A stretch of 33,122 nt of DNA. Source: Eubacteriales bacterium (GTDB taxonomy: Bacteria; Bacillota; Clostridia; Oscillospirales; CAG-382). Positions within the stretch are counted from its first letter, which is position 1. Each line of letters opens with the position of its first letter. Location: contig JAZRLT010000055.1 of the NCBI GenBank assembly GCA_045646995.1, positions 1-33,122 on the forward strand. The letters run 5' to 3'. The translations under genes and the position numbers were made by a program. This document shows positions 1,883 through 20,011 of the stretch, piece after piece. The notes beneath the pieces were generated by a model. The model searched no databases. It saw only the letters and a list, made by a program, of their open reading frames with translations, and was not told the origin of the DNA.

Positions 1883-1923
1883 TAATTACGTAATAAAAAA
1901 TAAAAATATAAAGGTGACACAGT

Positions 1924-4500: not shown

Positions 4501-4518
4501 ATTGATAATATAAAAATT

Positions 4519-4556
4519 CGACCGATAGGGAAGGCGTAAAAGCTTTCCCTCGGTCG
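4519..4556 (+). promoter_or_regulatory. Intercistronic stem-loop between the SBP and permease genes (possible partial attenuator or mRNA-stabilising hairpin)
   Basis: CGACCGATAGGGAA (4519-4532) pairs with TTCCCTCGGTCG (4545-4556) around a 12-nt loop with a 2-nt bulge. No U-tract follows, so it is not a canonical terminator. Confidence 0.4.
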
Positions 4557-4572
4557 GAGTTCGGAGTTACTG

Positions 4573-5565
4573 ATGCTTAAGTATATTTTAAAACGTCTTT
4601 TGATGTCCGTTTTCATACTTTTAGGCGTTTCGTTGATAATTTACTTCCTTATCCGTCTTATGCCCGTTGACTTTATCCAGGATAAGATCAACGCGATAAA
4701 CCAAGGCGGTGCGACGGTAAGTGAAGAAACCGTTAACGCTATGTATGAAATGTACGGGCTGGGCGATAACAGCTTTATCGGTATATTGAAGGGTTACTTC
4801 AGCTGGCTTGGCGCTATGGCAAGGTTTGACCTTGGTACGAGCTTTGTTTACGGTATCCCAGTTGCCGACGTTATCGTTGAACATATGGGAATATCCTTCG
4901 CTATCGCTTTGATAGCTACGATATTCGAATTTCTTATTGCTATCCCTCTCGGTATCACGGCGGCTACCCATCAATACAGCTTCCGCGATTACCTCGTTAC
5001 CGTTCTCGTTATGATCGGTATTTCTCTCCCGTCCTTCTTCTTCGGTCAGATGCTTAAGGACGTCCTTGCTCTCAAGCTTGGATGGTTCCCCGCGTCGGGA
5101 CTTGTCGATGCGACGGCGTCGTATACGGGTATAAGCCTTCTTATCGACTATTTGAAGCATTGCTTTATACCTATTCTTACGATAGTTATTCTCAGTATCG
5201 GTGCGAGAATGAGAATGACAAGAACGAATATGTTGGAGGTTATGAACTCCGACTATATCCGTACCGCCCGTGCAAAGGGCTTGAAGGAAAGCGTTGTCGT
5301 TAATAAGCACGCCTTCCGTAACACCCTTATTCCGATGGTAACCTCGCTTGCGGGCTTGTTGCCTTCGCTGTTTTCGGGTGCAATTATCACCGAGCAGGTA
5401 TTCGACCTTCCCGGTATCGGTAACATCGCTCTCGATGCGATGAACCGCGGCGATATTCCGTTTATAATGGGCTATAATATGTTCCTTGCGCTCTTAAGCG
5501 TAATCGGCGTTCTTCTCGCCGACCTTATGTACGGACTTGTCGATCCCCGTGTAAAACTTGAATGA
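4573..5565 (+). CDS. ABC transporter permease, OppB/DppB-like
   Basis: GGAG lies 7 nt upstream. The N-terminus MLKYILKRLL and the motif SDYIRTARAKGLKESVVVNKHAFRN (EAA loop region) are typical of the OppB/DppB family. The protein has multiple TM helices. Confidence 0.95.
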   Translation: MLKYILKRLLMSVFILLGVSLIIYFLIRLMPVDFIQDKINAINQGGATVSEETVNAMYEMYGLGDNSFIGILKGYFSWLGAMARFDLGTSFVYGIPVADVIVEHMGISFAIALIATIFEFLIAIPLGITAATHQYSFRDYLVTVLVMIGISLPSFFFGQMLKDVLALKLGWFPASGLVDATASYTGISLLIDYLKHCFIPILTIVILSIGARMRMTRTNMLEVMNSDYIRTARAKGLKESVVVNKHAFRNTLIPMVTSLAGLLPSLFSGAIITEQVFDLPGIGNIALDAMNRGDIPFIMGYNMFLALLSVIGVLLADLMYGLVDPRVKLE

Positions 5566-5576
5566 GGAGGCGCGTG

Positions 5577-6647
5577 ATGGAAGATATTACCAAAGAAGCT
5601 ATCGAAGGCGAAGTTGATACCAAAGCGGTTGAAACCGAAGAAATCGATACCGACGTGCCTTTAGATAAAACCGTCAAGCTTATGTCCCCGACGCGTATGG
5701 TCGTTCGTAGATTTTTCCGCTCGAAGCTTAGTATCGTCGGTCTAATAATGGTCGTAAGCCTTTTCGTGTTCAGCTTTATCGGTCCCCTTGTCTATACTCA
5801 ATGGGGCGAAATCGAGCTTGATGAAAGCGGTAAGACCGAATATTCGGTCTCCCAAACCACTTATACGGTAAACGGTAAGGAATATACCCTTCGCCAGACT
5901 ACCGAAAAATCTCTTAAGGATAATTTCCTTGCTCCCCCCTCTGCCGAGCATATTCTCGGTACTGATAACGAAGGCTACGATATTTTCGTCCGTCTTATGT
6001 ACGGTGGTAGAATTTCTCTTATCGTAAGCTTTCTCGCCGTTTTCCTTATTACCGTTTTGGGCGTGTTCCTCGGCGGTGTTGCGGGATTCTTCGGCGGTGC
6101 GGTAGATAATATAATAATGCGACTTTGCGATATTCTTATCTGCCTTCCCGGTATTCCGATCCTTCTTATTATAAGTACGATCCTCGACGCGTCCGAAATC
6201 GACGCTAAATACCGTATCTACCTTCTTATGATTTATCTTACCTTTATTTCTTGGCCGGGTACTGCCCGCCTTGTAAGAGGTCAGATACTCTCTCTCCGTG
6301 AACAGGAATATATGGTTGCGGCGGAGGCTATGGGCTATTCCGCTCCCAGAAAGATATTTAAGCATCTCGTTCCCAACGTTATGCCTCAGCTTATCGTTTC
6401 GATGAGCTTGAGCTTGGGTAGTATGATTCTTTACGAAGCTACTCTTTCGTATTTGAACCTCGGCGTTAAAGCTCCCTACGCCGCTTGGGGTACGATGATC
6501 AATATTATCTCCACTAATCAGGATATTCTCCAGAATCACCTTAACGTATGGGTTCCCGCAGGTATCTGTATCGTTATCGCGGTTCTCGGCTTTAACTTTA
6601 TCGGCGACGGTCTCCGCGACGCGCTCGACCCGAAAGCGAGGAGGTAA
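5577..6647 (+). CDS. ABC transporter permease, OppC/DppC-like, with an extended N-terminal and extracytoplasmic loop region
   Basis: AGGAGG at 5566-5571 favours ATG 5577 over the ORF-track ATG 5562. The motifs HILGTDNEGYDIFVRLMYGGRISL and EQEYMVAAEAMGYSAPRKIFKHLVPN are OppC-type signatures. Confidence 0.9.
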   Translation: MEDITKEAIEGEVDTKAVETEEIDTDVPLDKTVKLMSPTRMVVRRFFRSKLSIVGLIMVVSLFVFSFIGPLVYTQWGEIELDESGKTEYSVSQTTYTVNGKEYTLRQTTEKSLKDNFLAPPSAEHILGTDNEGYDIFVRLMYGGRISLIVSFLAVFLITVLGVFLGGVAGFFGGAVDNIIMRLCDILICLPGIPILLIISTILDASEIDAKYRIYLLMIYLTFISWPGTARLVRGQILSLREQEYMVAAEAMGYSAPRKIFKHLVPNVMPQLIVSMSLSLGSMILYEATLSYLNLGVKAPYAAWGTMINIISTNQDILQNHLNVWVPAGICIVIAVLGFNFIGDGLRDALDPKARR

Positions 6648-6650
6648 ATT

Positions 6651-7808
6651 ATGAGTAAAAATAATGTAAACCGCCTCACCGGTAAAGAGATTCGCGCTAT
6701 TGCGAAGGAAAATAAGAAAATCATTAAAAAGTTAGAGGCGTATAAAAATCGTAAATGCGACGAGACCGAATATCTCGGCCATATGTCCGACGAATCCAAT
6801 ATCCTTGAAATCGATAATCTTCATACCTACTTCTTCACCGAACAGGGTGTCGTAAAGGCGGTCAACGGCGTTTCCTTCGACGTTCCCAAGAATACGACGG
6901 TCGGTATCGTTGGCGAATCGGGTTGCGGTAAGTCGGTTACGAGTATGTCGGTAATGCGCCTTATACAAGGCCCCGCAGGTCAGATTTTTTCGGGCAGTAT
7001 CCGCTTTAACGCGAAGACTGCTTCGGGTGAATCGAAGGTATATGATATCGCGAAAATGCCTATGCGCGATATCCATAAGATTCGCGGTGACCAGATCGCT
7101 ATGATATTCCAAGAGCCTATGACCTCGCTAAACCCCGTGTTTACTATCGGTCAACAGCTCGATGAGGTTACGTTTATTCATAACCCCAACGCTACTAAAG
7201 AGGAAGCAAAGGCAAAATCGATAGAGATGCTCGACCTTGTCGGCATCGCTATCCCTGAACGTGTTTATAATTCCTTCCCCCATGAGCTTTCGGGCGGTAT
7301 GCGTCAAAGAGTTATGATCTCTATGGCGCTTGCAAGCAATCCCCGCCTTATTATCGCCGACGAGCCCACTACCGCGCTCGACGTTACGATTCAGGCTCAG
7401 ATACTCGATCTTCTCCGCGATTTGAAGTCTAAAATCGACGGCTCTATAATGCTTATCACCCACGACCTCGGTATAATCGCCGAAATGGCTGATTACGTTG
7501 TCGTAATGTATGCGGGAAGAGTTATCGAAAAGGGTACTGTTGAAGAGATTTTCCATAATCCTCTCCACCCATATACGATAGGACTCCAAAAGTCCAAACC
7601 CACTCTTAATTCCGACAGCGATACGCTGTTCAATATCCCCGGTAACGTACCTAATCCGGTAAATATGCCGAATTACTGTTACTTCAAGGAAAGATGCTCT
7701 AAATGTATTAAAAAATGTTCCGGCGATTATCCCGGAATGGTTCAGGTAAGCCCGACTCATTTTGTGGCTTGCCACCTTTACGGAGAGGAGGCTGAGAATA
7801 ATGGCTGA
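6651..7808 (+). CDS. ABC transporter ATP-binding protein, OppD/DppD-like, with a ~50-aa basic N-terminal extension
   Basis: GGAGG RBS is present. It has Walker A GESGCGKS, signature LSGGMRQR, Walker B LIIADEPTTALD and an H-loop ITHDL. The C-terminal oligopeptide-ATPase Cys motif is CYFKERCSKCIKKC...VACH. Confidence 0.95.
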   Translation: MSKNNVNRLTGKEIRAIAKENKKIIKKLEAYKNRKCDETEYLGHMSDESNILEIDNLHTYFFTEQGVVKAVNGVSFDVPKNTTVGIVGESGCGKSVTSMSVMRLIQGPAGQIFSGSIRFNAKTASGESKVYDIAKMPMRDIHKIRGDQIAMIFQEPMTSLNPVFTIGQQLDEVTFIHNPNATKEEAKAKSIEMLDLVGIAIPERVYNSFPHELSGGMRQRVMISMALASNPRLIIADEPTTALDVTIQAQILDLLRDLKSKIDGSIMLITHDLGIIAEMADYVVVMYAGRVIEKGTVEEIFHNPLHPYTIGLQKSKPTLNSDSDTLFNIPGNVPNPVNMPNYCYFKERCSKCIKKCSGDYPGMVQVSPTHFVACHLYGEEAENNG

Positions 7809-8796
7809 TCAGATCAAGAACGAACAACCTATTCTCGAGGTGCGTAACCTCCGTAAATGCTTCCCTTTGAAGAAGACTCTTACAGGTAAGGTTACAAGCG
7901 AGCTCGTCGCTGTCGATAACGTTTCGTTTACGCTTAATGCGGGCGAAACTCTCGGTATCGTTGGCGAATCGGGTTGCGGTAAGACTACTCTCGGAAGAAC
8001 TATTCTTAAGCTTCACGAATCCTCGGGAGGTCAGATTTTCTTCGACGGTAAGGATATTACGAACCTTAAGTCTTCTCAAATGCGCGAGATTCGTAAGCAA
8101 ATGCAGATAATCTTTCAGGACCCCTATTCCTCGCTTCCTCCCCGAAGCACGGTCGGCGGTATCCTTTCCGAGCCCGTAGAGGTTCATAATATCGTTCCTA
8201 AGAGCGAGGTCAAGTCCTACGTGCTTGATTTGATGGATAAATGCGGTCTACGCGATTATTACTATGAAAGATATCCCCACGAATTTTCAGGCGGTCAGCG
8301 TCAGCGTATTTGTATCGCTCGTGCGCTTTCCGTAAAACCCAAGCTTGTTATCTGCGACGAACCCGTTTCGGCTCTCGACGTTTCGATTCAGGCACAGATA
8401 ATCAATCTTCTTAAACAACTTCAAAAGGATATGAACCTTACCTACGTGTTCATATCCCACGACCTTTCGGTCGTTAAGTTCATTTCGGATAAGATCGGCG
8501 TTATGTATCTCGGCTCTATGGTCGAGTTCGGTAATAAGGAGGATATCTTCTCTAATCCTCTCCATCCGTATACTCAAGCGCTCTTCTCGGCTATACCCCA
8601 GCCGGACCCTGATGTAAAAATGAACAGAATTATTCTTAAGGGCGATATTCCTTCGCCTGCGAATCCTCCTAAGGGATGTCGATTCCATACCCGTTGTCCT
8701 TACGCTAAGGATATCTGTAAGGAAGTCGTTCCCGAATATAAGGATTACGGTAACGGTCATTGTGCCGCTTGCCACTTGTTGGAAGAAACCACATAA
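7801..8796 (+). CDS. ABC transporter ATP-binding protein, OppF/DppF-like
   Basis: GGAGAGGAGG precedes ATG 7801 (MADQIKNE); the ORF-track start at 7762 is a TTG inside the upstream gene. It has Walker A GESGCGKT, signature FSGGQRQR and Walker B LVICDEPVSALD. The C-terminal Cys motif is GCRFHTRCPYAKDIC...HCAACH. Confidence 0.95.
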   Translation: MADQIKNEQPILEVRNLRKCFPLKKTLTGKVTSELVAVDNVSFTLNAGETLGIVGESGCGKTTLGRTILKLHESSGGQIFFDGKDITNLKSSQMREIRKQMQIIFQDPYSSLPPRSTVGGILSEPVEVHNIVPKSEVKSYVLDLMDKCGLRDYYYERYPHEFSGGQRQRICIARALSVKPKLVICDEPVSALDVSIQAQIINLLKQLQKDMNLTYVFISHDLSVVKFISDKIGVMYLGSMVEFGNKEDIFSNPLHPYTQALFSAIPQPDPDVKMNRIILKGDIPSPANPPKGCRFHTRCPYAKDICKEVVPEYKDYGNGHCAACHLLEETT

Positions 8797-8812
8797 TTAA
8801 AGGTATAAGTAA

Positions 8813-9055
8813 ATGAGTAAGAAAGAAAAAAAGGAAAAGCCTATATATATCGACGACGGAAGAACTATTGCCGATATGTCGGGCGTTTCGGGAGGTCTTC
8901 CCGAATGGACTAAACACGGCACTACCTCGAGTGTAAAGGATATTCTGCGTACCTATTTCGGTGCGATGAGGATGATGCTCCTTCCGACTCTTGCGATAGT
9001 AGGACTTCTTCTTGTTGCCTTTCTTATAGTTTCGCTTATCTTTATTGCTATGTAA
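8813..9055 (+). CDS. Small (80 aa) tail-anchored membrane protein of unknown function
   Basis: A weak RBS (AAAGGT) is present. The N-terminus is Lys/Glu-rich (MSKKEKKEKP). A single C-terminal hydrophobic stretch (LLPTLAIVGLLLVAFLIVSLIFIAM) runs to the stop codon. It is tightly packed between the ATPase and thioredoxin-lipoprotein genes. Confidence 0.55.
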   Translation: MSKKEKKEKPIYIDDGRTIADMSGVSGGLPEWTKHGTTSSVKDILRTYFGAMRMMLLPTLAIVGLLLVAFLIVSLIFIAM

Positions 9056-9092
9056 CTTTAAATTTATCCCCTTGATATAAAAGGAGAAATTT

Positions 9093-11888
9093 ATGAGAAA
9101 TCTTAAATCATTTATGCCAAGAAGCCTCGTTTCGATGATTGCGCTTCTTCTTGCGGTAGTTTTCTGTATGTCGGCGCTCGTTTCTTGCGATAACGGCGGA
9201 GATGAAAGCAGTAACACCTCCGGTTCGGAAGCATCAGGCGAAAAGGCTACCTACACCGTAAGCGTTAAATCTAACGGCGGTGTTCCTCTTTCCGGTCTTG
9301 ATATCTATATCTATAAGGGCGCGGAATTGAAGGATATGAAGGAATTCTCCAAAACCAACGAAAACGGCGAGATAACCTTCAGTCTTCCCAAGAGCGACGA
9401 TTACTTCATCGTTGTTTCGGGCGCACCCAAGGGCTACAAGGTTGAGAAAAGCTATGGATTTGTAGGTACCTCCTCGGCGATAGTTCTTACCTCTTCGCTC
9501 GTTACCGGAGAGGATATCTCGACCGCTCAGCTCGGAATCGGTGACGTTATGTATGATTTCACCGTTATGAATTCCGAAGGTCAGGAAGTAAAGCTTTCCG
9601 AGGTGTTCAAAACTAAAAAGCTCGTCGTTCTTAACTTCTGGTATACTACTTGTAGCTGGTGTCTCGAGGAATTCCCCCTTATGGAGGAGCTTTATCGCGA
9701 CTATAAGGAAGACGTTGAAATTATCGCGCTCGACCCGCTCGACGACGCTAATGCCGTCAAGAGCTTCCGCGCTCAGCACGGTCTTTCCTTCCCGATGGCG
9801 GCTTGTCCTTCCTCTTGGTCGGCTGTGTTCGGCGTTCAGGGTTATCCTACCTCGGTATTTATCGACCGCTACGGTACTATCTGTATCGTTGAATCGGGCG
9901 CTATCACAAGCAAGCGTCCTTGGATAAGCGCGTTTGACCATTTCACCGCTGATAATTACAAGCAAAAGATCTGTACTAACGGTATCGGAGACCTTGTTTC
10001 TCAGGTTAAGCCTACCTATACTATGGATACTACCGAAAATATCTCCGCTCTTATCAATAACGGCGATATTGAGGTTACCTACCGTGCGGAGACCGATTCC
10101 GATACTGCCGAATTCACTTGGCCCTTTATTGCGGGCGAAAAGCTCGGCGAGAACTGTATCTACGCTTCCAATAAGGGTATCGACGGTTCCTACGCTATTA
10201 TTTACGCTGACGTGACTCTTAAAAAGGGTCAGGCAGTAGGATTCGATTATCTCGTTTCCTCTGAATACGGCTGCGACATAATGTACGTAATCGTTGATGA
10301 CGACGATATCTACCAGATCTCGGGCGTTTCCGATAAGGAGGAATGGAAGTCCTGCTATCCCTGCGTAGCCGAAGAGGATGGCACCTACGAGATCGCGCTC
10401 TGCTTCCTTAAAGATGAGGACGGTACCGAGGGCGACGACACCGTGTATATCAAGAATATGCGTGTCGTTGACGAAAAGGACATCGATACCGATTCCTATT
10501 TGCCCCGTTATGCGGCTACGAGCGAGGATGGATTCGAGTTCGATTACGTTGACGTAGTATTCAACGAAAAGGACGGATATTACCACGTCGGCTCGGCTAA
10601 CGGACCTCTTCTTCTCGCTGACCTTATGGGATATACCCAGTTCAATGAAGAAAAATCCGTTTTCGATATCGTTACTGCGGGAGACGCTGATAAGGGCGGA
10701 GTAAGCCTTTATAATAAGGTTGCCGAAGGCGGCTTGGGAATGGTTGATTACTTCTCCTATGCTTCCAATTCTCGACTTAACGGTGTTTGTACCGTAAATA
10801 AAGAGCTCGGCGAAATGCTAAAGCAGGTTGCTGAGGTTGCAGGCTTTGAGGATGATTCCAACGAATGGCTTAAGATATGTAAATATTTCAAGGCATACGG
10901 CAAGGGCAATACTCAGCTTGAGGACCCGATAAAGGGACTTGCTACCTTCAGCGCGTATGAAACTAAGCTCGGCAAGAACGTTTCTACTAACTATTTCCAA
11001 TACGATAGAGCGATCATCCCGAGAGGTATGTTCTCTCGCTTCACTCCTTCTAAGTCGGGCGTTTACCGTTTCAGCTCCAAGAGCGATTATGCCGAGGGCA
11101 TAGATGCTTGGATCTTTAATGAAAAGGGCGAAATAATTTACACCTATGAGCTTTCCGAAAGAATGTGGAGCGATTCGAATAACTGTTCCATGGTATACTA
11201 TATGGAAGCAGGTAAGTCCTATTATATTAATATGGCGTTCTGGGACGTTTATGCTACCGGTAGAATCAACTATGACGTTGAATATCTTGGAGCTACCTAT
11301 AAGCTCTTCCGTTCGGCTTCTCCCGGATACTTTACCTATGATTCCGACGCTACCGGAGAGGTAATGTACGACGTTATAAGCGGCGGTATAACCCCTGTAT
11401 TGAAGGATGGCAAGTATTACGACTCCGAGGACGGAAGCCTTATTTACGCTGACTTTACCGGTGTTACCAACCTCTTTGGACATTCTATCGTTGAAATGAT
11501 AGAAATGGGCGGCTTCGACTTCAGCAAGTCTGAAACCGACGGTGAGGTTCTCGCATATCTCAAACAGAATGATAACGACGTAGAAAAAACCAAGGAATAC
11601 CTCAAAAAGCTTTGGGGCGAGGAATACGACGCTAACGCCGACATCTATCAGCTCGAAGACGTTTTTTCCGGAAGATATCACGGAAAGGGCGAAGATCTTA
11701 CCGAAGAAATTCGCGCTTATAAGAGCAAGATGGATAAGTCCTCTACCGAAAAGGACGGATGTGTTGTTGTCGATGAGCGCTTGGTTGAAATACTCCAAAA
11801 GCTTATGGATAAATATACCTTTGAGGGTGTTGAAAACTCTTGGCTCAAGGTGTGCTACTACTATGACTACCTCGGACCGGCTAAATAA
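9093..11888 (+). CDS. Multidomain lipoprotein (931 aa): prealbumin-like beta-sandwich, TlpA/ResA-like thioredoxin fold (CSWC), jelly-roll-like domain, PPC-like domain and two copies of the uncharacterised DGYYH/W-x3-C-Y module
   Basis: RBS AAAGGAG is present and the lipobox is LVSC. The beta-sandwich is YTVSVKSNGGVPLSGLDIYIYKG...GAPKGYKVE. The thioredoxin fold is LVVLNFWYTTCSWCLEEFP...GVQGYPTSVFIDRYG, with the CxxC codons at 9651-9662. Module copies lie at about 10572-10890 and 11410-11870. Confidence 0.9.
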   Translation: MRNLKSFMPRSLVSMIALLLAVVFCMSALVSCDNGGDESSNTSGSEASGEKATYTVSVKSNGGVPLSGLDIYIYKGAELKDMKEFSKTNENGEITFSLPKSDDYFIVVSGAPKGYKVEKSYGFVGTSSAIVLTSSLVTGEDISTAQLGIGDVMYDFTVMNSEGQEVKLSEVFKTKKLVVLNFWYTTCSWCLEEFPLMEELYRDYKEDVEIIALDPLDDANAVKSFRAQHGLSFPMAACPSSWSAVFGVQGYPTSVFIDRYGTICIVESGAITSKRPWISAFDHFTADNYKQKICTNGIGDLVSQVKPTYTMDTTENISALINNGDIEVTYRAETDSDTAEFTWPFIAGEKLGENCIYASNKGIDGSYAIIYADVTLKKGQAVGFDYLVSSEYGCDIMYVIVDDDDIYQISGVSDKEEWKSCYPCVAEEDGTYEIALCFLKDEDGTEGDDTVYIKNMRVVDEKDIDTDSYLPRYAATSEDGFEFDYVDVVFNEKDGYYHVGSANGPLLLADLMGYTQFNEEKSVFDIVTAGDADKGGVSLYNKVAEGGLGMVDYFSYASNSRLNGVCTVNKELGEMLKQVAEVAGFEDDSNEWLKICKYFKAYGKGNTQLEDPIKGLATFSAYETKLGKNVSTNYFQYDRAIIPRGMFSRFTPSKSGVYRFSSKSDYAEGIDAWIFNEKGEIIYTYELSERMWSDSNNCSMVYYMEAGKSYYINMAFWDVYATGRINYDVEYLGATYKLFRSASPGYFTYDSDATGEVMYDVISGGITPVLKDGKYYDSEDGSLIYADFTGVTNLFGHSIVEMIEMGGFDFSKSETDGEVLAYLKQNDNDVEKTKEYLKKLWGEEYDANADIYQLEDVFSGRYHGKGEDLTEEIRAYKSKMDKSSTEKDGCVVVDERLVEILQKLMDKYTFEGVENSWLKVCYYYDYLGPAK

Positions 11889-11917
11889 GCCGATATTTTG
11901 AAGAAAGAAGGGTAGTA

Positions 11918-13168
11918 ATGAAAACCAAAAGATTTTTAAGCCTTATAACGGCTGCCGTGCTTCTCTGCACGGCGGTCGTCCTCGGCGCTTGTAACGATAG
12001 CGGCGAGTCGAGCCTTCCTGCCGAAATGGAATATAAGGTTAACGTAAAAGATGCTCTCGGTAACGTTCAAAGTGCGGGCGTTATCGTTAAGTTCTTGAAG
12101 AACGGCGAGCAGGTTGCTATGGAGACCTGCGCGGAAAACGGAACCGTGGCGAAGACTCTTGCTACGGCTGAATATGATATCGAGCTTGCGTTTACTGCGG
12201 GTGCCGACGCTTTCTATTACGAAGCGGGTAAGGTTACCCCCGAAAAGACCGAGATCGATATGATCGTTTCCGCTAAGGTTACCTCCGAACCCCAAACAAT
12301 TAACGTAGGCGCCGATGAATACGATATGTATTATGTTGACGGCGGATGTACCTACGTCGAGCTTTCTACCGAAAAGCGTAACTATTTTGCCTTCGCTCCC
12401 AAGGCGTCGGGTAAATATAAGTTTTCGGTTATCGGCGCCGCTGACGTCAAGCTCGGATACCACGGCGCTCCCCATTTCGTTCAGGAAAACAATATCGCCG
12501 AAATGACCGACGGATATTTTTGTATTTCCGTCAGAGACGGTATGATAGGAACGGGTGATACCGGTACCGCGACCTACGTTATCGGTATTGATGCCGAAAG
12601 CACAAAGAATTGTATTCTTGCTATCGAGCGTATCGGAGACCCCGAAAAGTCCGTTGAGGACGAGCCTTGGACGGTCTATAAGACCACCGTCGAGTTGAAG
12701 GAATACGATCTCCCCGAGGGCGCGGCTCTTAAGGAATTCGATCTTACTGCTTCTACCGACACCTATAACCTCGTCTTTAACGAGGCCGACGGCTTCTATC
12801 ATCTTAATTCCGCCGACGGTCCTCTCGTGCTCGTTCGTCTTGATGAGGATAGCGATTATATCGCTTCCTTCGGTACGATGCTCGAGCGCTCGGGTCTTTC
12901 TAAGTATTTCTACGACGATAAGGGCGAGTTCGTTAAGAGAGAAAGCTATTCCGAATGTATAACCGAATATCTCGAATACGTAGACCTTAACGAGGGCGTT
13001 TACCCTATGACCGAAGACCTTAAGTATATTATTCAACAGCGCGGCGATTATGTCGGCTGGTGGAACCCCGAAAGCTCTTCATATATCTTTAAGGATATGA
13101 ACGGTAATAACCTTACCGATATTAATAACGAAATAGCTTGGCTTCTTATGAGCTGCTATATCGAATAA
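11918..13168 (+). CDS. Lipoprotein (416 aa): prealbumin-like beta-sandwich, PPC-like domain and the uncharacterised DGFYH...TEDL...W-x3-C-Y module
   Basis: RBS AAGGG is present and the lipobox is LGAC. The beta-sandwich is YKVNVKDALGNVQSAGVIVKF. The PPC-like region is YFAFAPKASGKYKFSVIGA. The module is FNEADGFYHLNSADGPLVLVRL...YPMTEDLKYIIQQ...AWLLMSCYIE. Confidence 0.85.
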   Translation: MKTKRFLSLITAAVLLCTAVVLGACNDSGESSLPAEMEYKVNVKDALGNVQSAGVIVKFLKNGEQVAMETCAENGTVAKTLATAEYDIELAFTAGADAFYYEAGKVTPEKTEIDMIVSAKVTSEPQTINVGADEYDMYYVDGGCTYVELSTEKRNYFAFAPKASGKYKFSVIGAADVKLGYHGAPHFVQENNIAEMTDGYFCISVRDGMIGTGDTGTATYVIGIDAESTKNCILAIERIGDPEKSVEDEPWTVYKTTVELKEYDLPEGAALKEFDLTASTDTYNLVFNEADGFYHLNSADGPLVLVRLDEDSDYIASFGTMLERSGLSKYFYDDKGEFVKRESYSECITEYLEYVDLNEGVYPMTEDLKYIIQQRGDYVGWWNPESSSYIFKDMNGNNLTDINNEIAWLLMSCYIE

Positions 13169-13177
13169 GGTATGGTT

Positions 13178-14038
13178 ATGAGAAATAATAAGAAATGTTT
13201 TATCGCGTTACTGATACTCGCTTGTTTATGTGTTTCGATGGCTTTGTCGGGTTGCGAAAGCTCGGTAGAACCGTCCGATGATTCCGTATCGGGGGACTAT
13301 CAGTATGCGGTTAAGGTCGTTACCGAGGGCGGAATGCCCTTGGCTAACGTTCAGGTTAAGGTTTTTAACCGCGGAGACAGTCTTGTTTTTGCGGGATATA
13401 CCGATAAAGAGGGAAGTCTTACCTTCGCTTCTCCGCAATATGGTCTTAATGCGGTGCTTTCCGAGCTCCCTAAGGGTTATCGATGCGACGCTGCACAACC
13501 CTTGAACGAAAAGGAAAACAAGATCGTTGTAAAAACCTTTTTTGTAGGTACCGATATAGTCGGTAATAAATATACGCTCGGAAGCATTGTCGATGACTTT
13601 TCGGTTACCGCAGTAAACGGAAAAACCTATAAGGTTTCCGAGTTACTCGAAACCAAGAAAGCTGTCGTGCTTAACTTCTGGTTCGAGAATTGCGGACCCT
13701 GCCGAATGGAATTTCCTTATCTTAACGAGGCGTATAACGAGTATAAGGATAAACTTGAGGTTATTGCGATAAGCCCTGTTGACAGCGAAAACGCCGTTTC
13801 CGCTTACGCAAAGGATATGAAGCTTGATTTTCCGATGGTTTCGGCAAATCTCGAATGGGAACAAGCCTTCGGATTCGGCGGATATCCCACGACGGTTGTT
13901 ATAGACCGCTACGGAATGGTAGCCATGATGCATACCGGCGCGGTTACCGACAAGGAAGCGTTTGCTTCGATGTTCGAGCATTTTACTTCGGACGAATATA
14001 AACAAGGCGTTGTAAAAAATCTCAGCGAACTCAAATAA
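13178..14038 (+). CDS. Lipoprotein: prealbumin-like beta-sandwich fused to a TlpA/ResA-like thioredoxin fold (CGPC)
   Basis: TAAGGT spacing favours ATG 13178; ATG 13172 is an alternative. The lipobox is LSGC. The beta-sandwich is YAVKVVTEGGMPLANVQVKVF...LPKGYRCD. The thioredoxin fold is AVVLNFWFENCGPCRMEFP...GFGGYPTTVVIDRYG, with the CxxC codons at 13691-13702. Confidence 0.9.
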   Translation: MRNNKKCFIALLILACLCVSMALSGCESSVEPSDDSVSGDYQYAVKVVTEGGMPLANVQVKVFNRGDSLVFAGYTDKEGSLTFASPQYGLNAVLSELPKGYRCDAAQPLNEKENKIVVKTFFVGTDIVGNKYTLGSIVDDFSVTAVNGKTYKVSELLETKKAVVLNFWFENCGPCRMEFPYLNEAYNEYKDKLEVIAISPVDSENAVSAYAKDMKLDFPMVSANLEWEQAFGFGGYPTTVVIDRYGMVAMMHTGAVTDKEAFASMFEHFTSDEYKQGVVKNLSELK

Positions 14039-14057
14039 ATATAAGGGGTATCTTAAA

Positions 14058-15197
<1,140 letters not shown>

Positions 15198-15252
15198 TAA
15201 AATACAAAAATTTGATGCGATTAAACATAATCAAATTGAAGGGAGAACAAAA

Positions 15253-15684
15253 ATGAAAAGAATTTTGTTTGTCTTGCTCGCTTTGACTTTGGTGTTCGGT
15301 CTTTGCGCTTGCGCTACTACTACCGACGTAAGTAAGGCGCCTTCCGATGCCGACGTCAGCAAGACCGAATCCAAGGAAGAATCCAAAGAGGCTTCCAAGG
15401 AAGAATCCACCCCTGCTTCGCTTCCTGAATTTGTAGTCAAGGTTGTTGACGCCGAGGGTAACCCTGTTGAAGGTGCTATGATTCAGGTATGTAAAGATAC
15501 CTGCGTTCCTATGAAGAGTAATGCTGAAGGTAAGGCAATATTCAATATTACCGTTACCGACGGCTATAAGCTTTCTGTTCTTGCTTGTCCCGCAGGCTAT
15601 GAATATACCGGCGAAGCCGAGGTTTATTTGGAAAGCGGAATTACCGAATATACCGTAGAATTGGCGAAGGTAGTTTCCGAATGA
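15253..15684 (+). CDS. Small lipoprotein (143 aa) consisting of a signal, a K/E/S linker and a single prealbumin-like beta-sandwich module
   Basis: GAAGGGAG RBS lies before ATG 15253; the ORF-track start at 15184 is a GTG overlapping the upstream gene. The lipobox is LCAC. The module is FVVKVVDAEGNPVEGAMIQVCKD...CPAGYEY. Confidence 0.8.
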   Translation: MKRILFVLLALTLVFGLCACATTTDVSKAPSDADVSKTESKEESKEASKEESTPASLPEFVVKVVDAEGNPVEGAMIQVCKDTCVPMKSNAEGKAIFNITVTDGYKLSVLACPAGYEYTGEAEVYLESGITEYTVELAKVVSE

Positions 15685-16730
15685 AAAAAATAACTTTCGT
15701 GCTTTTTCTGGTGTCGGTAGTTGCTTTTGCGATGATTTTGGGCGCTTGTAACGATTCTTCGGATAATAGCTCTTCGGTGGATAATTCCGTAAATGGATCT
15801 ACCTCCGTTTCGTCGGGTAATAACTCCGAAAACGTTTCCGGCTCTGCTGATAACGACGCGTCGAATGACGCTTCCTTCGAGTCGGGCGTAAACGCTTCCG
15901 ACGGAGTAAGTGACGCCACCGACGAAAGCGATAATTCGGATGTTGTTGATAATTCCGACGAGGATAATACCTCCGATGGAAGCGAAAACTCCGATGAAAG
16001 CGACGAATCCGATAATAACGGCGCGTCCGACGACAGCACTGTTCCCGACGACAGCTCGGATGAAAGCTCTGAACCCGAGGTTGTCGGAAGCGGAACCGAG
16101 GCTGATCCTTATTTGGTTATTCCGGATGAGGATATGCATCTTGTAACCGTAAATATCCCCGCAGGTAAAGACGTATATTACAACATTTACCGTGTCGGCG
16201 GAATGAATCTTAAGATTAAGTCCAAAGACGTTTACATCATTTATGACGGAAAGACCTATAACCCTAAAAGCGGAACCTTGTCGCTCTCGATTGAAGATGC
16301 TATGGCGAGTGAAGCAATTTCTTTCCGAATAGGCAATAACGCTTCAAGCGAGCAATCCTTCGAGCTTGTCTTCTCCAACCCGACCGGTTCTTATATGAAC
16401 CCCACCAAGGTGGATGATCTCAAGGATGAAAATTTCATCGAGCTCGAGGCGGATAACGCTGTCGGCCATTACTATAAGTATATTGCCGAAAAGAAGGGTA
16501 CTATTGTATTCGCTATGTCCGCTACCGCTGACAGCACTTTGTCAGTTACCAATAACCGCAACTCCGCCCAGAGAACTACCGAAGCGGACGGCTCGGCTGA
16601 CGGCGACGTGAAATACGTCGAGATCGAGGTCGAAAAGGGCGACGAATTGATTATTAACGTCGGCGCTCTCCCGAATCGACGCGGTAAGTATCCTGCAACC
16701 GATATCACTTGGTCTGCTGAATACAAATAA
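15681..16730 (+). CDS. Lipoprotein (349 aa) with a ~110-aa Ser/Asp/Asn-rich linker and two PPC-like beta-sandwich modules
   Basis: An ATGA start/stop overlap joins it to the upstream gene. The lipobox is LGAC. The modules start at GSGTEADPYLVIP and PTGSYMNPTKVDDL. The HYYKYIAEKKGTIVF-type strand resembles modules in the dockerin protein. Confidence 0.8.
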   Translation: MKKITFVLFLVSVVAFAMILGACNDSSDNSSSVDNSVNGSTSVSSGNNSENVSGSADNDASNDASFESGVNASDGVSDATDESDNSDVVDNSDEDNTSDGSENSDESDESDNNGASDDSTVPDDSSDESSEPEVVGSGTEADPYLVIPDEDMHLVTVNIPAGKDVYYNIYRVGGMNLKIKSKDVYIIYDGKTYNPKSGTLSLSIEDAMASEAISFRIGNNASSEQSFELVFSNPTGSYMNPTKVDDLKDENFIELEADNAVGHYYKYIAEKKGTIVFAMSATADSTLSVTNNRNSAQRTTEADGSADGDVKYVEIEVEKGDELIINVGALPNRRGKYPATDITWSAEYK

Positions 16731-16736
16731 TTCCCC

Positions 16737-16765
16737 TTGCGCATAATGAAAAATTGTGCTAAACT
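16737..16765 (+). promoter_or_regulatory. Candidate sigma-A promoter for the dockerin-protein gene
   Basis: TTGCGC (16737-16742), a 17-nt spacer, then an extended -10 TGcTAAACT (16757-16765). It lies in the largest gap (91 nt) of the cluster. Confidence 0.3.
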
Positions 16766-16821
16766 GTTGAAGTAATGCTATGGAAAATAGCTTTACAAAT
16801 AAAATTTATAAGGAGAAACTC

Positions 16822-18894
16822 ATGAAAAACACTATGAAAAAAGCTCTTAGCTTGCTCGTGGTTTTCGCTATGGTTTGCGTTCCTATGATCGCAAGTGCAG
16901 CTGTTGGTGATGGCGTGGCTATGCCCAGCGATTGCATTTATAGCGGCGATTACGTAACTGTTGAAGCCGGCGCTACTACCTACTTTGAAATCGGTACCGG
17001 TATGACCGCAGGTACCTATGGCTTCGTTGTTGAAGGCGAAGGCGATTTTGACGTTGCTGTTTGTACCGAAGGCAACGGCGAATATCCTTACGCTGAAGGC
17101 GAAGCTGTTTCTGCTGTTGATGGCGTTGTTGAAACCGAAATCACCAGCTTTGAAAGCACTTATAACTACGCTGCTTTCGCTATCACCAACAACAGCGAAA
17201 ACGATGTTGACTACCTCGTAACTATCCTCTTCCCCGAAGGAACTCAGGATAACCCCAAGGCTGTTACTCTCGCTGTCGGAACCCCTGTTGAGGTTACCAT
17301 CGCAGCAGGCGTAACCTACTATATCGGCGCTTCTCTTCCTATGATGAACACCGAATATAATCTTACCGTTACCGGTGCCCCCGGCTTCTATTACGGCGGC
17401 GGTATGATGAGACCCAGCCCTGACAACAATGGTACCTACACCGCTACCGTTTCCGCTTCTATGTTCAGTGGCGGTATGGCAAACTTCAATATCTCTAACG
17501 GTACTGAAGAAGAACAGACCTATACTCTTACCCTTGAAAATATGCCTGCAGGCGCTTCTGAAGGTAACCCCGAAATCATCGAAGTATCCGATTTTTACAC
17601 CACTTCGTTCTCCGAGCATTTCTACTCCTTCACCGCTACCGAATCCGGAACCTTCACCGTTTCTATGTCTTCTGAAGAAGGCTGGATGTATCAGATCAAC
17701 GGTATTACCGCAGATTATGATTACTACTACGGCGATATGCACTGGTGTGACGACGATCCCGTTGTTATGTCCGAATCTATCGACGTAAACGCAGGTGACG
17801 TATACACTATTTACGTTGGTTCTTATATGTCCGACGAAATGGTTTACTGGTCCTTCAATTTCGAAGCTAAGACTCTTGGCGAAAAGCCCCTTTACAACGA
17901 AAACGGCGCTGACGGCTACCTTTCCGTAACCGATTCCTATGTTGATTACGATATGAATGGTGATTTCGTATACACCATCTTGGAATTCACCCCTGACGAA
18001 GCAGGTAACTATATTATCGATCTCGCAGGCGGCGCGATGGCAGGTATCGTTTCCTACAACGGTATGTGGGTTACTATCGAACCCTCCGCTGATGTTGTAA
18101 ATATGTCTACTATTGAGTGGGAATGCACCAGCGTTGGTCAGACTATCTGGGTTGCAGTTATTGCTGAAACCGAAACCGTTTCTATCAACGTTTCCTATGA
18201 AGAAGTTGTTGTTGTAGTAATTCCCGAATATGATTACGAAAACGTTGTAACTCCCGAGGAATTCGTATACAACGGCGATACCGCTGACTTCGATTACGTT
18301 GAAACCTTTGACGATATCGTTGATAACGCGGTTCTCGGTGATGATGGCTACTACCACCTCAACTCTGCTGACGGCCCCGTTCTCTTCGCTTGCCTCAACG
18401 ATGACCTTATGTCTCTCGTAGGCGCAAACACCTACGGTCAGCTTACTTACGTTGAATATGACGAAGATGGCAACGTGGTTTCCAAGACTCATTATGCAAT
18501 CGCATTCGAAGAATATGCAGCTTGCGCTTACACCGATGATGCGGGCTATATGTACTATCCTCTTACCGAAGACCTTATCGTTATGTTCCAGAACGTTGGC
18601 GCTAATAACGGCTGGTATGGCGAAAACGGATTCGTAGGCGGCGATATCGAAGATGCTTGGATGTTCGCTTGCTACTATGACGAAGAAGTTACCACTATCG
18701 AACCCGTTGTTGAACCCGAATACGACCCCAACGGCGACGGCGAATTCAATATGTTCGACTATGTATTCGTTAAGGCTACCGTTCTCAGCAACGATGCTTC
18801 CGAAGAAGAAATCGCTGCTGCTGACGTAAACGGCGACGGCAAGCTTAATATGTTCGACTATATTGCTGTTAAGTCTGCATATTTCGCAATCTAA
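16822..18894 (+). CDS. Secreted dockerin-bearing protein with several PPC-like modules and one DGYYH...TEDL...W-x3-C-Y module
   Basis: AAGGAGA RBS lies before ATG 16822 (MKNTMKKALS). The signal peptide has an ASA-type cleavage site and no lipobox. The module is DDGYYHLNSADGPVLFACL...YPLTEDLIVMFQ...AWMFACYY. The C-terminal dockerin has duplicated segments DPNGDGEFNMFDY and DVNGDGKLNMFDY. Confidence 0.9.
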   Translation: MKNTMKKALSLLVVFAMVCVPMIASAAVGDGVAMPSDCIYSGDYVTVEAGATTYFEIGTGMTAGTYGFVVEGEGDFDVAVCTEGNGEYPYAEGEAVSAVDGVVETEITSFESTYNYAAFAITNNSENDVDYLVTILFPEGTQDNPKAVTLAVGTPVEVTIAAGVTYYIGASLPMMNTEYNLTVTGAPGFYYGGGMMRPSPDNNGTYTATVSASMFSGGMANFNISNGTEEEQTYTLTLENMPAGASEGNPEIIEVSDFYTTSFSEHFYSFTATESGTFTVSMSSEEGWMYQINGITADYDYYYGDMHWCDDDPVVMSESIDVNAGDVYTIYVGSYMSDEMVYWSFNFEAKTLGEKPLYNENGADGYLSVTDSYVDYDMNGDFVYTILEFTPDEAGNYIIDLAGGAMAGIVSYNGMWVTIEPSADVVNMSTIEWECTSVGQTIWVAVIAETETVSINVSYEEVVVVVIPEYDYENVVTPEEFVYNGDTADFDYVETFDDIVDNAVLGDDGYYHLNSADGPVLFACLNDDLMSLVGANTYGQLTYVEYDEDGNVVSKTHYAIAFEEYAACAYTDDAGYMYYPLTEDLIVMFQNVGANNGWYGENGFVGGDIEDAWMFACYYDEEVTTIEPVVEPEYDPNGDGEFNMFDYVFVKATVLSNDASEEEIAAADVNGDGKLNMFDYIAVKSAYFAI

Positions 18895-18913: not shown

Positions 18914-18942
18914 AAAAAGGTGCTCGTAAGAGCACCTTTTTT
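18914..18942. terminator. Bidirectional intrinsic terminator between the convergent cluster end and spoIVB
   Basis: AAAAAGGTGCTC-GTAA-GAGCACCTTTTTT: a 7-bp GC-rich stem flanked by an A-run and a T-run. Confidence 0.8.
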
Positions 18943-18946
18943 GTAT

Positions 18947-20011
18947 TTACGCCGCTAAATGATAATATTCTTCTTCTTCTTGTACGCTTACGTCGTAAGC
19001 GGTATGAAGCATATTTTCTATAAATATGCCGTATCCCCTTGTAGGGTCGTTTACGAGTACGTGAGTCACCGCGCCGATGAGTTTGCCGTCTTGAATAATC
19101 GGACTGCCCGACATTCCCTGAACGATACCGCCGGTTCGATCGACTAACTTTTCATCGGTGACGTGGATAACGAAATTTTTCATAGTGCCCGAGCCGCCGT
19201 ATATATGCTCGATCTCTATTTCGTATTCCTCGCGGTCGTGACCGTCAAGCGTTGTCAGTATATGCGCCTTGCCTTCCTTTATTTCGGACTTGTCGGCAAC
19301 GGGAATCGCTTTGTCGGTATTTTTCGGAAGCGATATAAATCTTCCGAAAACACCTTGATCGCTGTTTTCCCAAAGCTCGCCGATAACCTTCGAATCAAAG
19401 CTGCCCTTTAATTCGCCGGGATCGTTTTTGACACTTTTTACAACGTCGGTTATGCTGACGTCAACTATTGCTCCGCGCGAGAGGGGAAGCAGTAAGCCCG
19501 TTTCGGAATCGTAAATCCCGTGGCCTAAGCCTCCGAAGTCGAGCGTTTCGGGGTCGATATAGGTGATCGTTCCGATACCCGCCGTTGAGTCGCGCACCAA
19601 GATTCCGATACGGTATTGCCCGCTGTCCTTGTCAAGAACGGGATTGACCGTTGACGATTTCTCTTCGCCGTTGCGTACGAACGCTATCGTTATCGGCTTT
19701 CCTCCGCATCCCGCGATGAGTCGGATCAACTCGTTTGCCGATTTGAATTCGGTGCCACCCGCTCTTACAATGATATCGCCCGATTGGATACCGCTATCCT
19801 TTGCGGGTGAAACCACTCCTGATGCGGTTTCTACGCCCGTCGTGCCGAGGACTATTGCGCCCTCGGTGAAGAACTTGACACCGAACGCCATTCCGCCCGG
19901 AATAAGCGTTTCAATACCCTCGGTTGCACCTGCCGAAGGAGCCGATACCGTTAATGCTATGACCGTCGCCGCCAAAAACGCAAAAAACCTTTTTGACCTT
20001 CTGCTTTTCAT
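18947..20011 (-). CDS. spoIVB: SpoIVB peptidase (S55), sporulation signalling serine protease with a PDZ domain
   Basis: AAGGGAG RBS is present, with an N-terminal signal/anchor. The PDZ-like region is GIQSGDIIVRAGG. The S55 motifs are GIGTITYIDPETLDFGGLGHGI and GIVQGMSGSPIIQDGKLIGAVTHVLVNDPTRGYGIFIENML. Confidence 0.9.
   Translation of the reverse strand: MKSRRSKRFFAFLAATVIALTVSAPSAGATEGIETLIPGGMAFGVKFFTEGAIVLGTTGVETASGVVSPAKDSGIQSGDIIVRAGGTEFKSANELIRLIAGCGGKPITIAFVRNGEEKSSTVNPVLDKDSGQYRIGILVRDSTAGIGTITYIDPETLDFGGLGHGIYDSETGLLLPLSRGAIVDVSITDVVKSVKNDPGELKGSFDSKVIGELWENSDQGVFGRFISLPKNTDKAIPVADKSEIKEGKAHILTTLDGHDREEYEIEIEHIYGGSGTMKNFVIHVTDEKLVDRTGGIVQGMSGSPIIQDGKLIGAVTHVLVNDPTRGYGIFIENMLHTAYDVSVQEEEEYYHLAA

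Follow-up and report, generated by a model that had tools for sequence, protein, structure and literature searches.

The module and its four copies

The subject of this study is a protein module that is encoded four times on contig JAZRLT010000055.1 of an Eubacteriales bacterium (Oscillospirales; assembly GCA_045646995.1), the whole 33,122 bp of which was analysed and is referred to below as the window. The cell-surface protein genes of the window form one long run on the plus strand, from about nt 554 to 18894, and encode, in order, a lipoprotein of 442 amino acids (aa), an Opp-type ABC transporter, an 80-aa membrane open reading frame (ORF), the proteins A931 and B416, redoxin lipoproteins of 288 and 379 aa, two further lipoproteins (one small and prealbumin-like, the other of 349 aa) and the protein C704, after which a strong terminator-like hairpin closes the run (Table 1). 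The module occurs twice in A931 (A1 and A2) and once each in B416 (B) and C704 (C). The rest of the contig holds unrelated housekeeping genes (SpoIVB, GerA, M23, VanY, UDG, MgtE, GH36 and Spo0A).

Each of the three most similar copies contains three motifs. The first is DGYYH in A931 (nt 10572) and in C704 (nt 18343) and DGFYH in B416 (nt 12788). The second lies 71–72 aa further on and is CTVNKEL in A1 (aa 566), YPMTEDL in B (aa 362) and YPLTEDL in C (aa 593), and the third is EWLKICKYF in A1 (aa 591), AWLLMSCYIE in B (aa 407–416) and AWMFACYYDE in C (aa 626–635, finishing about nt 18684). The copy A2, found inside the final 167 residues of A931, spans DGKYY (aa 772, nt 11406) to SWLKVCYYYD (aa 916–925). 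All of the motifs by which a preliminary description of this DNA had recognised the module are present on the plus strand where it placed them; it listed the middle and end motifs in another protein order, joined by ‘or’, which is not an error. Its observation that the module stands at the extreme C-terminus of two of the three proteins holds for A931 and B416, while in C704 a linker and a type I dockerin come after the module.

Pairwise BLASTP comparisons gave E-values of 1.0e-13 for B and C (127 aa), 2.5e-9 for A1 and B, 5.7e-7 for A1 and C and 1.1e-7 for A1 and A2 (in the C-terminal half). An independent hidden Markov model (HMM), for which 151 B/C-type modules (none of them A-like) were taken from other organisms, detected B and C (Table 1) and also A1 (25.7 bits); in A2 it recognised only the N-terminal hairpin (8.2 bits). 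Profiles of the A1 and A2 families, from 83 and 87 distinct orthologues, respectively, were then compared by hhalign. The A1 family aligned with the B/C module with a probability of 98.3% (E 1.3e-14, 103 columns) and the A2 family with a probability of 94.0% (E 1.5e-7, 107 columns), the latter alignment covering the whole module and bridging the insertion of ~45 aa; the A1 and A2 families aligned with each other at 97.4% (E 1.3e-11). The four segments are homologous copies of one module, of which A2 is the most degenerate; the paralogy that had been proposed is statistically well founded.

Table 1 Module copies, the proteins that carry them and accompanying features of the window.
Feature	Position (nt)	Strand	Description
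Module A1	10533..10907	+	A931 aa 481–605; HMM envelope
Module A2	11385..11885	+	A931 aa 765–931, diverged, extreme C-terminus, ~45-aa insertion
Module B	12743..13165	+	B416 aa 276–416, extreme C-terminus; 134.4 bits against independent B/C HMM
Module C	18298..18696	+	C704 aa 507–639; 165.3 bits against independent B/C HMM
Beta-sandwich and linker before module B	12281..12742	+	B416 aa 122–275; 106.8 bits against upstream-region HMM
Beta-sandwich and linker before module C	17881..18300	+	C704 aa 368–507; 115.2 bits against upstream-region HMM
A931	9093..11888	+	Lipoprotein: prealbumin-like domain, ResA/TlpA-like thioredoxin domain, modules A1 and A2
A931 thioredoxin domain		+	aa 147–274, CSWC; above gathering cut-off for AhpC-TSA (60.4 bits) and Redoxin (57.4 bits)
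B416	11918..13168	+	Lipoprotein: prealbumin-like domain, beta-sandwich, module; no Pfam or NCBIfam match
C704	16780..18894	+	Secreted; several beta-sandwiches, module, type I dockerin
C704 type I dockerin		+	aa 648–698; PF00404 (Dockerin_1) 39.8 bits, cut-off 22.9
Redoxin lipoprotein, 288 aa	13172..14038	+	CGPC; AhpC-TSA 70.1 bits; ResA subfamily E 1.8e-26
Redoxin lipoprotein, 379 aa	14058..15197	+	CHWC, acidic PE-rich linker; AhpC-TSA 57.7 bits
Small prealbumin-like lipoprotein	15184..15684	+	Weak CarboxypepD_reg and SpaA matches
349-aa lipoprotein	15681..16730	+	No Pfam or PDB match
Opp-type ABC transporter	1924..9055	+	Pfam: 858-aa SBP_bac_5 lipoprotein, two permeases, two ATPases; 80-aa membrane ORF
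Intrinsic-terminator-like hairpin	18914..18941	+	12-bp stem then T run, 20 nt past C704 stop

Searches for related families and structures

The preliminary description could assign the module to no family, and searches of Pfam-A, NCBIfam, PHROGs, the PDB and BFVD gave no meaningful match. In the 2025 copy of Pfam-A the module was not matched at E ≤ 0.1 in A931, B416 or C704, and when 101 diverse modules were scanned singly one chance match to PBP_like_2 (E 0.003) was obtained. NCBIfam (June 2026) had no match to the module in the three proteins and matched one of the 101 modules at E 0.0098. No PHROG family matched the module in the three proteins or in more than two of the 101 modules (best E 2e-5), and all of the families concerned are unannotated.

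The PDB sequences, searched with two profiles, yielded just two matches, both of which are spurious. The first was to the designed Cake propellers (6tjb–6tji), where the similarity is a hairpin of 22 residues that contributes ~4 bits per repeat and becomes significant only by summing nine identical repeats. The hairpin of the module (vlGeDGyYhlnsadGp) does resemble that of the PQQ-like propeller blade (viGEDGTIYVGSNDGHL), but the module has one such hairpin and an alpha/beta fold, not a propeller. The second match, to 2jpu/2q00, had an E-value of 0.0046, which became 2e-4 with a deeper profile. It was rejected as compositional because the matched fragment belongs to an all-helical PaREP1/HEPN protein (73.5 bits) and was aligned with a predicted beta-hairpin, and because Foldseek did not return it.

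When the predicted model of the isolated module (pLDDT 95, see below) was compared with the PDB by Foldseek, the best match had an E-value of 0.93, with a probability of at most 0.06 and a TM-score of at most 0.21, and no match was found in BFVD (best E 0.32). For the model of full-length B416 the matches were confined to the N-terminal sandwiches. No fold or family of carbohydrate-binding modules (CBMs) was among the Foldseek or Pfam matches, and the module is mixed alpha/beta. A Cys-His peptidase of the papain-like, NlpC-P60 or transglutaminase type was also considered and rejected: the Cys is 89% conserved and shifts in position, the His is lost in A2 and in a protein with four module copies (P0295), and no such fold was matched. 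The Cys, moreover, is located at the end of helix 4 and start of strand 7 and not at the N-terminus of a helix, as a papain-like identity would have it.

Nothing was found in the literature on the module or on the gene cluster, and the public names of homologues are limited to ‘hypothetical protein’, ‘redoxin domain-containing protein’ and ‘dockerin type I repeat-containing protein’. It is very probable that the module represents a real new domain family and, judging from the predicted model, its fold is possibly new. The module could instead belong to a known fold from which it has diverged so far that Foldseek failed to recognise it, and the top Foldseek matches, although weak, are indeed ferredoxin-like RRM domains (E ~1, probability ≤0.05). 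We regard this as rather improbable, given the poor scores in the PDB of a model of such high predicted quality, the 101 diverse sequences that lack a meaningful family match, and B416 homologues that are publicly just ‘hypothetical protein’.

Predicted fold and residue conservation

Two AlphaFold2 models were made, one of full-length B416 from 117 B-family sequences and the other of the C704 module alone from 101 diverse modules. The former has a predicted local distance difference test (pLDDT) score of 89 overall and of ~90 or more across aa 285–416; the latter has a pLDDT of 95.4 and a predicted TM-score of 0.88. The order of secondary structure elements is identical in both (beta-beta-beta-alpha-beta-beta-alpha-beta-alpha-alpha-beta). 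A hairpin of strands 1 and 2, with the DG[YF]YH motif at its turn, is followed by strand 3, helix 1, a second hairpin of strands 4 and 5 and helix 2; strand 6 (YPL) then leads to helix 3, which is capped by TxDL, a variable loop that starts from GW, helix 4 (AWMFA) and strand 7 (CYY). The module is thus predicted to be a compact alpha/beta domain of ~130 residues that folds autonomously. Length variation is centred on three loops.

The signature of the module is DG[YF]YH..GP ... Y ... YPLTxDL ... GW ... WMFACYY, in which the columns conserved at 97% or above are D16, G17, Y19, G26, Y73, P85, G98, W103 and W118. Conservation is 94% for His20, 95% for Asp89 and 89% for Cys122. Each of the four P0295 copies has Arg in place of His20, and A2 has lost this His; Asp89 is replaced by Glu in A1 and by Arg or Glu in A2; and in some subfamilies Cys122, at the end of helix 4 and start of strand 7, is displaced by one residue. 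The A1 orthologues share DGYYH and two Cys without exception (83/83), and the A2 orthologues likewise share two Cys (87/87). An obligatory disulfide in the module was considered and dropped, as 35 of the 151 modules have a single Cys; a further three have none. From the sequences, the conservation pattern looks like that of a fold core and not of an active site.

The upstream beta-sandwich

The preliminary description had placed a PPC-like beta-sandwich upstream of at least one module copy in each protein. This is borne out for B416 by the AlphaFold2 model and Foldseek and for C704 by homology to the corresponding region of B416; in A931 all that was found is a motif of 16 columns before A2. 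In the model the region upstream of the B416 module is all-beta and forms a beta-sandwich, and the whole B416 model matched 1nqd, 1nqj, 2o8o and 5sv5 (ColG collagen-binding, PPC) with a probability of 1.0 and TMt of 0.47–0.58. From domain size, we infer that these matches belong to the sandwich and not to the N-terminal prealbumin-like domain. By sequence, Pfam PPC was matched neither in the three proteins nor in the 101 modules. The 150 aa that precede the module are also conserved in the family as a whole, and an HMM of this region from 142 other proteins recognised the upstream regions of both B416 and C704 (Table 1). The 16-column motif of A931 aligned with the B/C sandwich at a probability of 56%, and no homology to this sandwich was detected in the region before A1.

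The conserved unit of B416 and C704 is thus a cassette of ~290 aa, in which a PPC/collagen-binding-like sandwich and a linker are followed by the module as the C-terminal half. Like the PPC and ColG collagen-binding domains, this sandwich is an accessory domain of secreted Firmicute proteins. The likeness to PPC and ColG is limited to the partner sandwich of B416 and its C704 homologue, the module itself being alpha/beta and without match, and we know of no description of a PPC-like sandwich and an alpha/beta domain arranged as a fixed cassette.

Distribution and architectures of module-containing proteins

An exhaustive search with HMMER, covering 1.84 billion cluster representatives, detected the module in 1,182 of them (clusters at 50% identity) when the threshold was E ≤ 1e-3 and in 751 when it was E ≤ 1e-10; the proteins are 124–2062 aa long, and at 90% identity there are several thousand clusters. 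Of 143 representatives, 136 carry a single copy, six carry two and one carries four. The N-terminus is signal-like or lipobox-like in 130 of the 143. The module is at the extreme C-terminus in 30 and is followed by a tail of 30–100 aa, the size of a dockerin, in 59. Many members of ~350 aa have no parts beyond a signal peptide, a stretch of ~130 aa, the module and a ~60-aa tail.

Among 44 members of diverse architecture, the accompanying Pfam domains of beta-sandwich type are Big_1, CarboxypepD_reg, SpaA, MG4 and SdrD_B. Dockerin_1 was found in nine of these members, Redoxin/AhpC-TSA in seven to eight, and SLH also occurs; no enzyme domain besides Redoxin was among the 25 commonest co-occurring families listed. 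Fusions of the module with a thioredoxin domain are found in A931 and in proteins of the P0278 type, and choline-binding repeats end some C-type relatives. The module is extracellular, autonomous and widely reused, and the proteins that carry it all seem to be secreted or lipid-anchored. It is a payload and not an anchor, because the anchors that accompany it are interchangeable (N-terminal lipid, dockerin, SLH or choline-binding repeats) and because it is often the sole part that is not immunoglobulin (Ig)-like.

The taxonomic survey covered 185,579 species-representative genomes and used patterns from an alignment of six C-type sequences, so that it is biased to C-type modules. It gave 92 confirmed loci, of which 80 were kept. 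All 80 are from metagenome-assembled genomes (MAGs) of gut Clostridia, belonging to Oscillospiraceae, Acutalibacteraceae, Ruminococcus, Faecousia, Ca. Avispirillum, Ca. Fimenecus and a few Lachnospiraceae. The hosts, where a record names one, are goat, sheep, buffalo, yak and roe deer; pig gut is the origin of two related contigs.

In several respects the module resembles CBMs, X modules and Ig-like spacers, as it is small and autonomous, occurs in one to four copies, is combined with dockerin, SLH or choline-binding anchors and is confined to extracellular proteins of Clostridia. It has no sequence or fold relationship to any CBM or X module in the PDB. Its gene context also differs from that of cellulosomal surface modules, as it is made up of thioredoxin-like lipoproteins and not of glycoside hydrolases.

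The cassette of sandwich and module could also be a small extracellular enzyme of a new type, such as a hydrolase of glycans or peptides. This possibility draws on the many dockerin proteins in which the cassette is the only non-Ig payload, and on conserved residues (Asp, His, Thr, Cys and aromatics) that could in principle make an active site. These candidate catalytic residues, however, vary among paralogues and the near-invariant positions are mostly Gly, Pro, Tyr and Trp. Up to four copies stand in tandem in one protein, and Foldseek found no likeness to any enzyme fold, including the papain/NlpC-P60-like and lysozyme-like folds. An enzymatic role is accordingly considered very unlikely.

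The redox gene cluster

Gene neighbourhoods were counted in 38 loci with at least 14 kb of sequence. In 32 of these the module gene has redoxin genes no more than 8 kb away, and relatives of the 288-aa and 379-aa redoxins are each present in 32. A gene like that of B416 is present in 31 loci and A-like regions in about 30; relatives of the small prealbumin-like lipoprotein and of the 349-aa lipoprotein occur in 31 and 29, respectively. Gene-by-gene comparison of five loci (L001, L002, L084, L085 and L086) gave the order A, B, redoxin(s), small lipoprotein and a protein of ~320–385 aa, mostly followed by a C-like gene. The genes from A931 to C704 constitute a conserved seven-gene cluster.

The AhpC-TSA scores of the three redoxins (Table 1) lie above the cut-off of 26 bits, and the A931 domain matches structures of ResA (E 6.9e-18) and of thioredoxin-family lipoproteins. 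The entries 4hqs, 4hqz and 2yp6 we take to be pneumococcal Etrx structures. All three thioredoxin-like lipoproteins score below the NCBIfam equivalog cut-offs for ResA and StoA and are therefore members of the family, not orthologues. Three active-site motifs are found in the one operon, namely CSWC (9093–11888), CGPC (13172–14038) and CHWC (14058–15197), and these differences suggest, from sequence, distinct redox potentials or partners.

The cluster resembles the Etrx1/Etrx2–CcdA–MsrAB2 system of Streptococcus pneumoniae, ResA and StoA of Bacillus subtilis and TlpA in that it encodes three lipid-anchored CxxC proteins. None of those systems has a domain like the module, however, and the thioredoxin domains of this cluster occur in fusion with prealbumin-like and other beta domains. 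No genes for MsrAB, CcdA or cytochrome-c maturation were found among the 27 window ORFs scanned, and the likely electron donor in related genomes is instead a fusion of polyferredoxin and thioredoxin. This membrane protein of ~480 aa (Fer4_5) has orthologues in 21 of 86 loci (E 1e-110 to 1e-206), among them L086 (20220–21674, minus strand), L002 (15282–16700, minus strand) and 19 more. It has NapH-like, CxxC-rich helices and a C-terminal thioredoxin domain with WCTPC and is a candidate electron conduit to the surface redoxins.

An S8 peptidase gene lies near the cluster in 20 loci, as judged from matches to the S8 N-terminal part. In L002 (17731–19366), L085 (1–1888) and L086 (22293–22841) it belongs to a giant peptidase of 2,410–2,548 aa with PA, fn3_5 and LRR_5 domains. 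Neither the S8 peptidase gene nor the polyferredoxin–thioredoxin gene is present on the 33-kb contig. The Opp transporter lies directly upstream of the cluster in the window, L001 and L085 and not in L002, L084 and L086; as it is adjacent in just three of the six contexts, it was rejected as an obligatory or defining partner.

The proximity of module and redoxins raises the possibility that the module is a redox client, or a thiol or metal site, with the Cys, His20 and Asp as its centre, and is kept reduced by the TlpA/ResA-like lipoproteins, much as TlpA, ResA, StoA and Etrx each have particular clients that contain Cys. The strong conservation of these three residues, the two invariant Cys of A1 and of A2, in a protein with a CxxC thioredoxin domain of its own, and the redoxin genes beside the module in 32 of the 38 loci are in keeping with such a role. 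So is the behaviour of characterised surface lipoproteins of the thioredoxin fold, which serve dedicated extracytoplasmic partners, as shown for Etrx and MsrAB2 (PMC3914529) and for StoA (PMC2665060). Against this, the modules with one Cys or none exclude an obligatory disulfide, the one-residue shift of the Cys in some subfamilies flips its side on the beta-strand, and the His is changed to Arg in P0295 and lost in A2. The second Cys of A1 is at the position of the conserved Tyr84, which would suggest that Cys122 and residue 84 pack in the core, and a redoxin domain is part of just 8 of the 44 diverse architectures. A role as client is, on balance, unlikely.

Alternatively, the module could be an assembly domain, with homotypic or heterotypic contacts between modules joining A931, B416 and C704 in one surface complex. 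It is common to these three operon proteins, whose genes occur together in about 30 of the 38 loci, it lacks catalytic signatures, and the two copies of A931 could bridge two partners. Many members, however, are single small dockerin proteins, six to nine of the 38 loci have no detectable relatives of at least one cluster partner, and C704 already possesses a dedicated assembly device in its dockerin. We therefore give an assembly role a distinctly low probability.

A proposed role in recognition

We favour, with reserve, the reading that the module is a non-catalytic recognition domain, which binds a ligand or a partner, and rate its likelihood a little short of even. A non-catalytic role is indicated because the near-invariant columns are Gly, Pro, Tyr, Trp and one turn Asp, and His20, Asp89 and Cys122 are not invariant. 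A role in recognition is indicated because tandem repetition and interchangeable anchors are typical of recognition modules. The four-fold repetition of a unit, as in P0295, resembles adhesins and binding modules.

The genomic context points to thiol-disulfide chemistry, possibly linked to the harvesting of protein or peptides, rather than to plant glycans. In a scenario built on this context, the cassette would give the thiol-disulfide oxidoreductase A931, the stand-alone lipoprotein B416 and the dockerin-borne C704 one targeting specificity, and their common target would be disulfide-bonded proteinaceous material at the cell surface. The redoxin lipoproteins of the cluster would reduce the disulfides of the target, with electrons that in many genomes could come from the adjacent polyferredoxin–thioredoxin membrane protein. 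Proteolysis, in many genomes by the neighbouring S8 peptidase, and peptide import by the Opp-type transporter, here encoded directly upstream, could follow. This disulfide-substrate scenario has gene neighbourhood as its only basis, and we consider it to be a speculative one with a low probability. In a broader version, the cassette, with a fold that would be new, would provide substrate recognition in an unrecognised extracellular system for disulfide reduction and protein harvesting in uncultured gut Oscillospirales, holding disulfide-rich dietary or host proteins for reduction before the S8 protease and Opp act; this is less probable still.

Several points weigh against the recognition role and the scenario attached to it. 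All known members of the module family are from uncultured MAGs. A surface cluster of D16, H20, D89 and C122, if present, would favour a metal or catalytic site, and payloads borne on dockerins are often enzymes. The linkage to Opp is seen in only three of six contexts, and the S8 peptidase and polyferredoxin genes are absent from this contig. The combination of a near-invariant Cys with co-encoded thiol reductases could also mean that the module is a client and not a targeting device.

Other features of the locus

A931 has a lipobox (LVSC) by reading of the sequence, and no family was assigned to the stretches before A1 and between A1 and A2; its orthologues carry the public name ‘redoxin domain-containing protein’. 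There are 1,219 homologues of B416, and those that are named are all ‘hypothetical protein’. The real start of C704 is probably Met15 (nt 16822, MKNTMKKALSLL...), 14 codons inside the mechanically called ORF, because the closest homologue (P0241) has 690 aa and the 704-aa form is absent from the protein collection. Internal Met starts are also probable for the ORFs at 15184 (GTG) and 7762 (TTG). Acidic low-complexity linkers, which are S/D/E-rich and include a KPEPKPEPKPEPEPEPEP run, are found in the 379-aa redoxin (14058–15197, aa ~60–140) and in the 349-aa lipoprotein (15681–16730, aa ~25–130). They separate the lipid anchor from the first folded domain and are presumed to be stalks through the cell wall. 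Long antisense ORFs of 326–577 aa lie on the minus strand opposite A931, B416 and C704 (9234–10586, 10818–11798, 11936–13036 and 16759–18492); their translations look compositionally odd, and we presume them to be shadow ORFs and not genes.

The solute-binding protein of the Opp transporter (1924–4500, plus strand) is unusually large at 858 aa, and its SBP_bac_5 match is confined to aa 445–750; its orthologues are equally long, with 859 aa in L001 and 854 aa in L085. The gap between the second Opp ATPase and A931 is occupied by the 80-aa ORF (8813–9055, plus strand; MSKKEKKEKPIYIDDGRTIADMSG...), which ends in a hydrophobic helix. It has orthologues at the equivalent position in L001 (6952–7194) and L085 (9725–9982), where no Pfam domain was detected, and may serve the transporter or the cluster as a small membrane subunit. 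A leader RNA or riboswitch in the 297-bp gap before A931 was considered and rejected, as the window has no Rfam match and the conserved 80-aa ORF fills the gap.

The 442-aa lipoprotein (554–1882, plus strand), located 5′ of Opp, has no Pfam match; unannotated proteins, of 434 aa in L001 and 335 aa in L085, occupy the corresponding place there. The coding region of the 442-aa lipoprotein contains a perfect palindrome with a 12-bp stem (672–699). At the other end, SpoIVB (Peptidase_S55 and PDZ; 18947–20011, minus strand) is convergent with the cluster. A link to sporulation was not retained: SpoIVB neighbours the cluster in the window, L001 and L085, but only 7 of 80 genome loci show this adjacency, which is probably local synteny of the lineage.

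Implications

Undescribed domains are common in MAGs. The domain described here is widespread yet unnamed in databases, so that proteins which consist mainly of the module are annotated as ‘hypothetical’. Its definition provides a handle on a conserved and unstudied seven-gene surface cluster built around three thioredoxin-like lipoproteins, and adds an entry, possibly with a new fold, to the modules borne on dockerins. If the module is an inert spacer or a binding module, the gain would mainly be better annotation. The reading in terms of redox chemistry and protein harvesting would, if correct, be of considerably greater interest. The cluster also raises the testable idea that strict anaerobes may run a dedicated extracellular disulfide reduction tied to the acquisition of protein or peptides.

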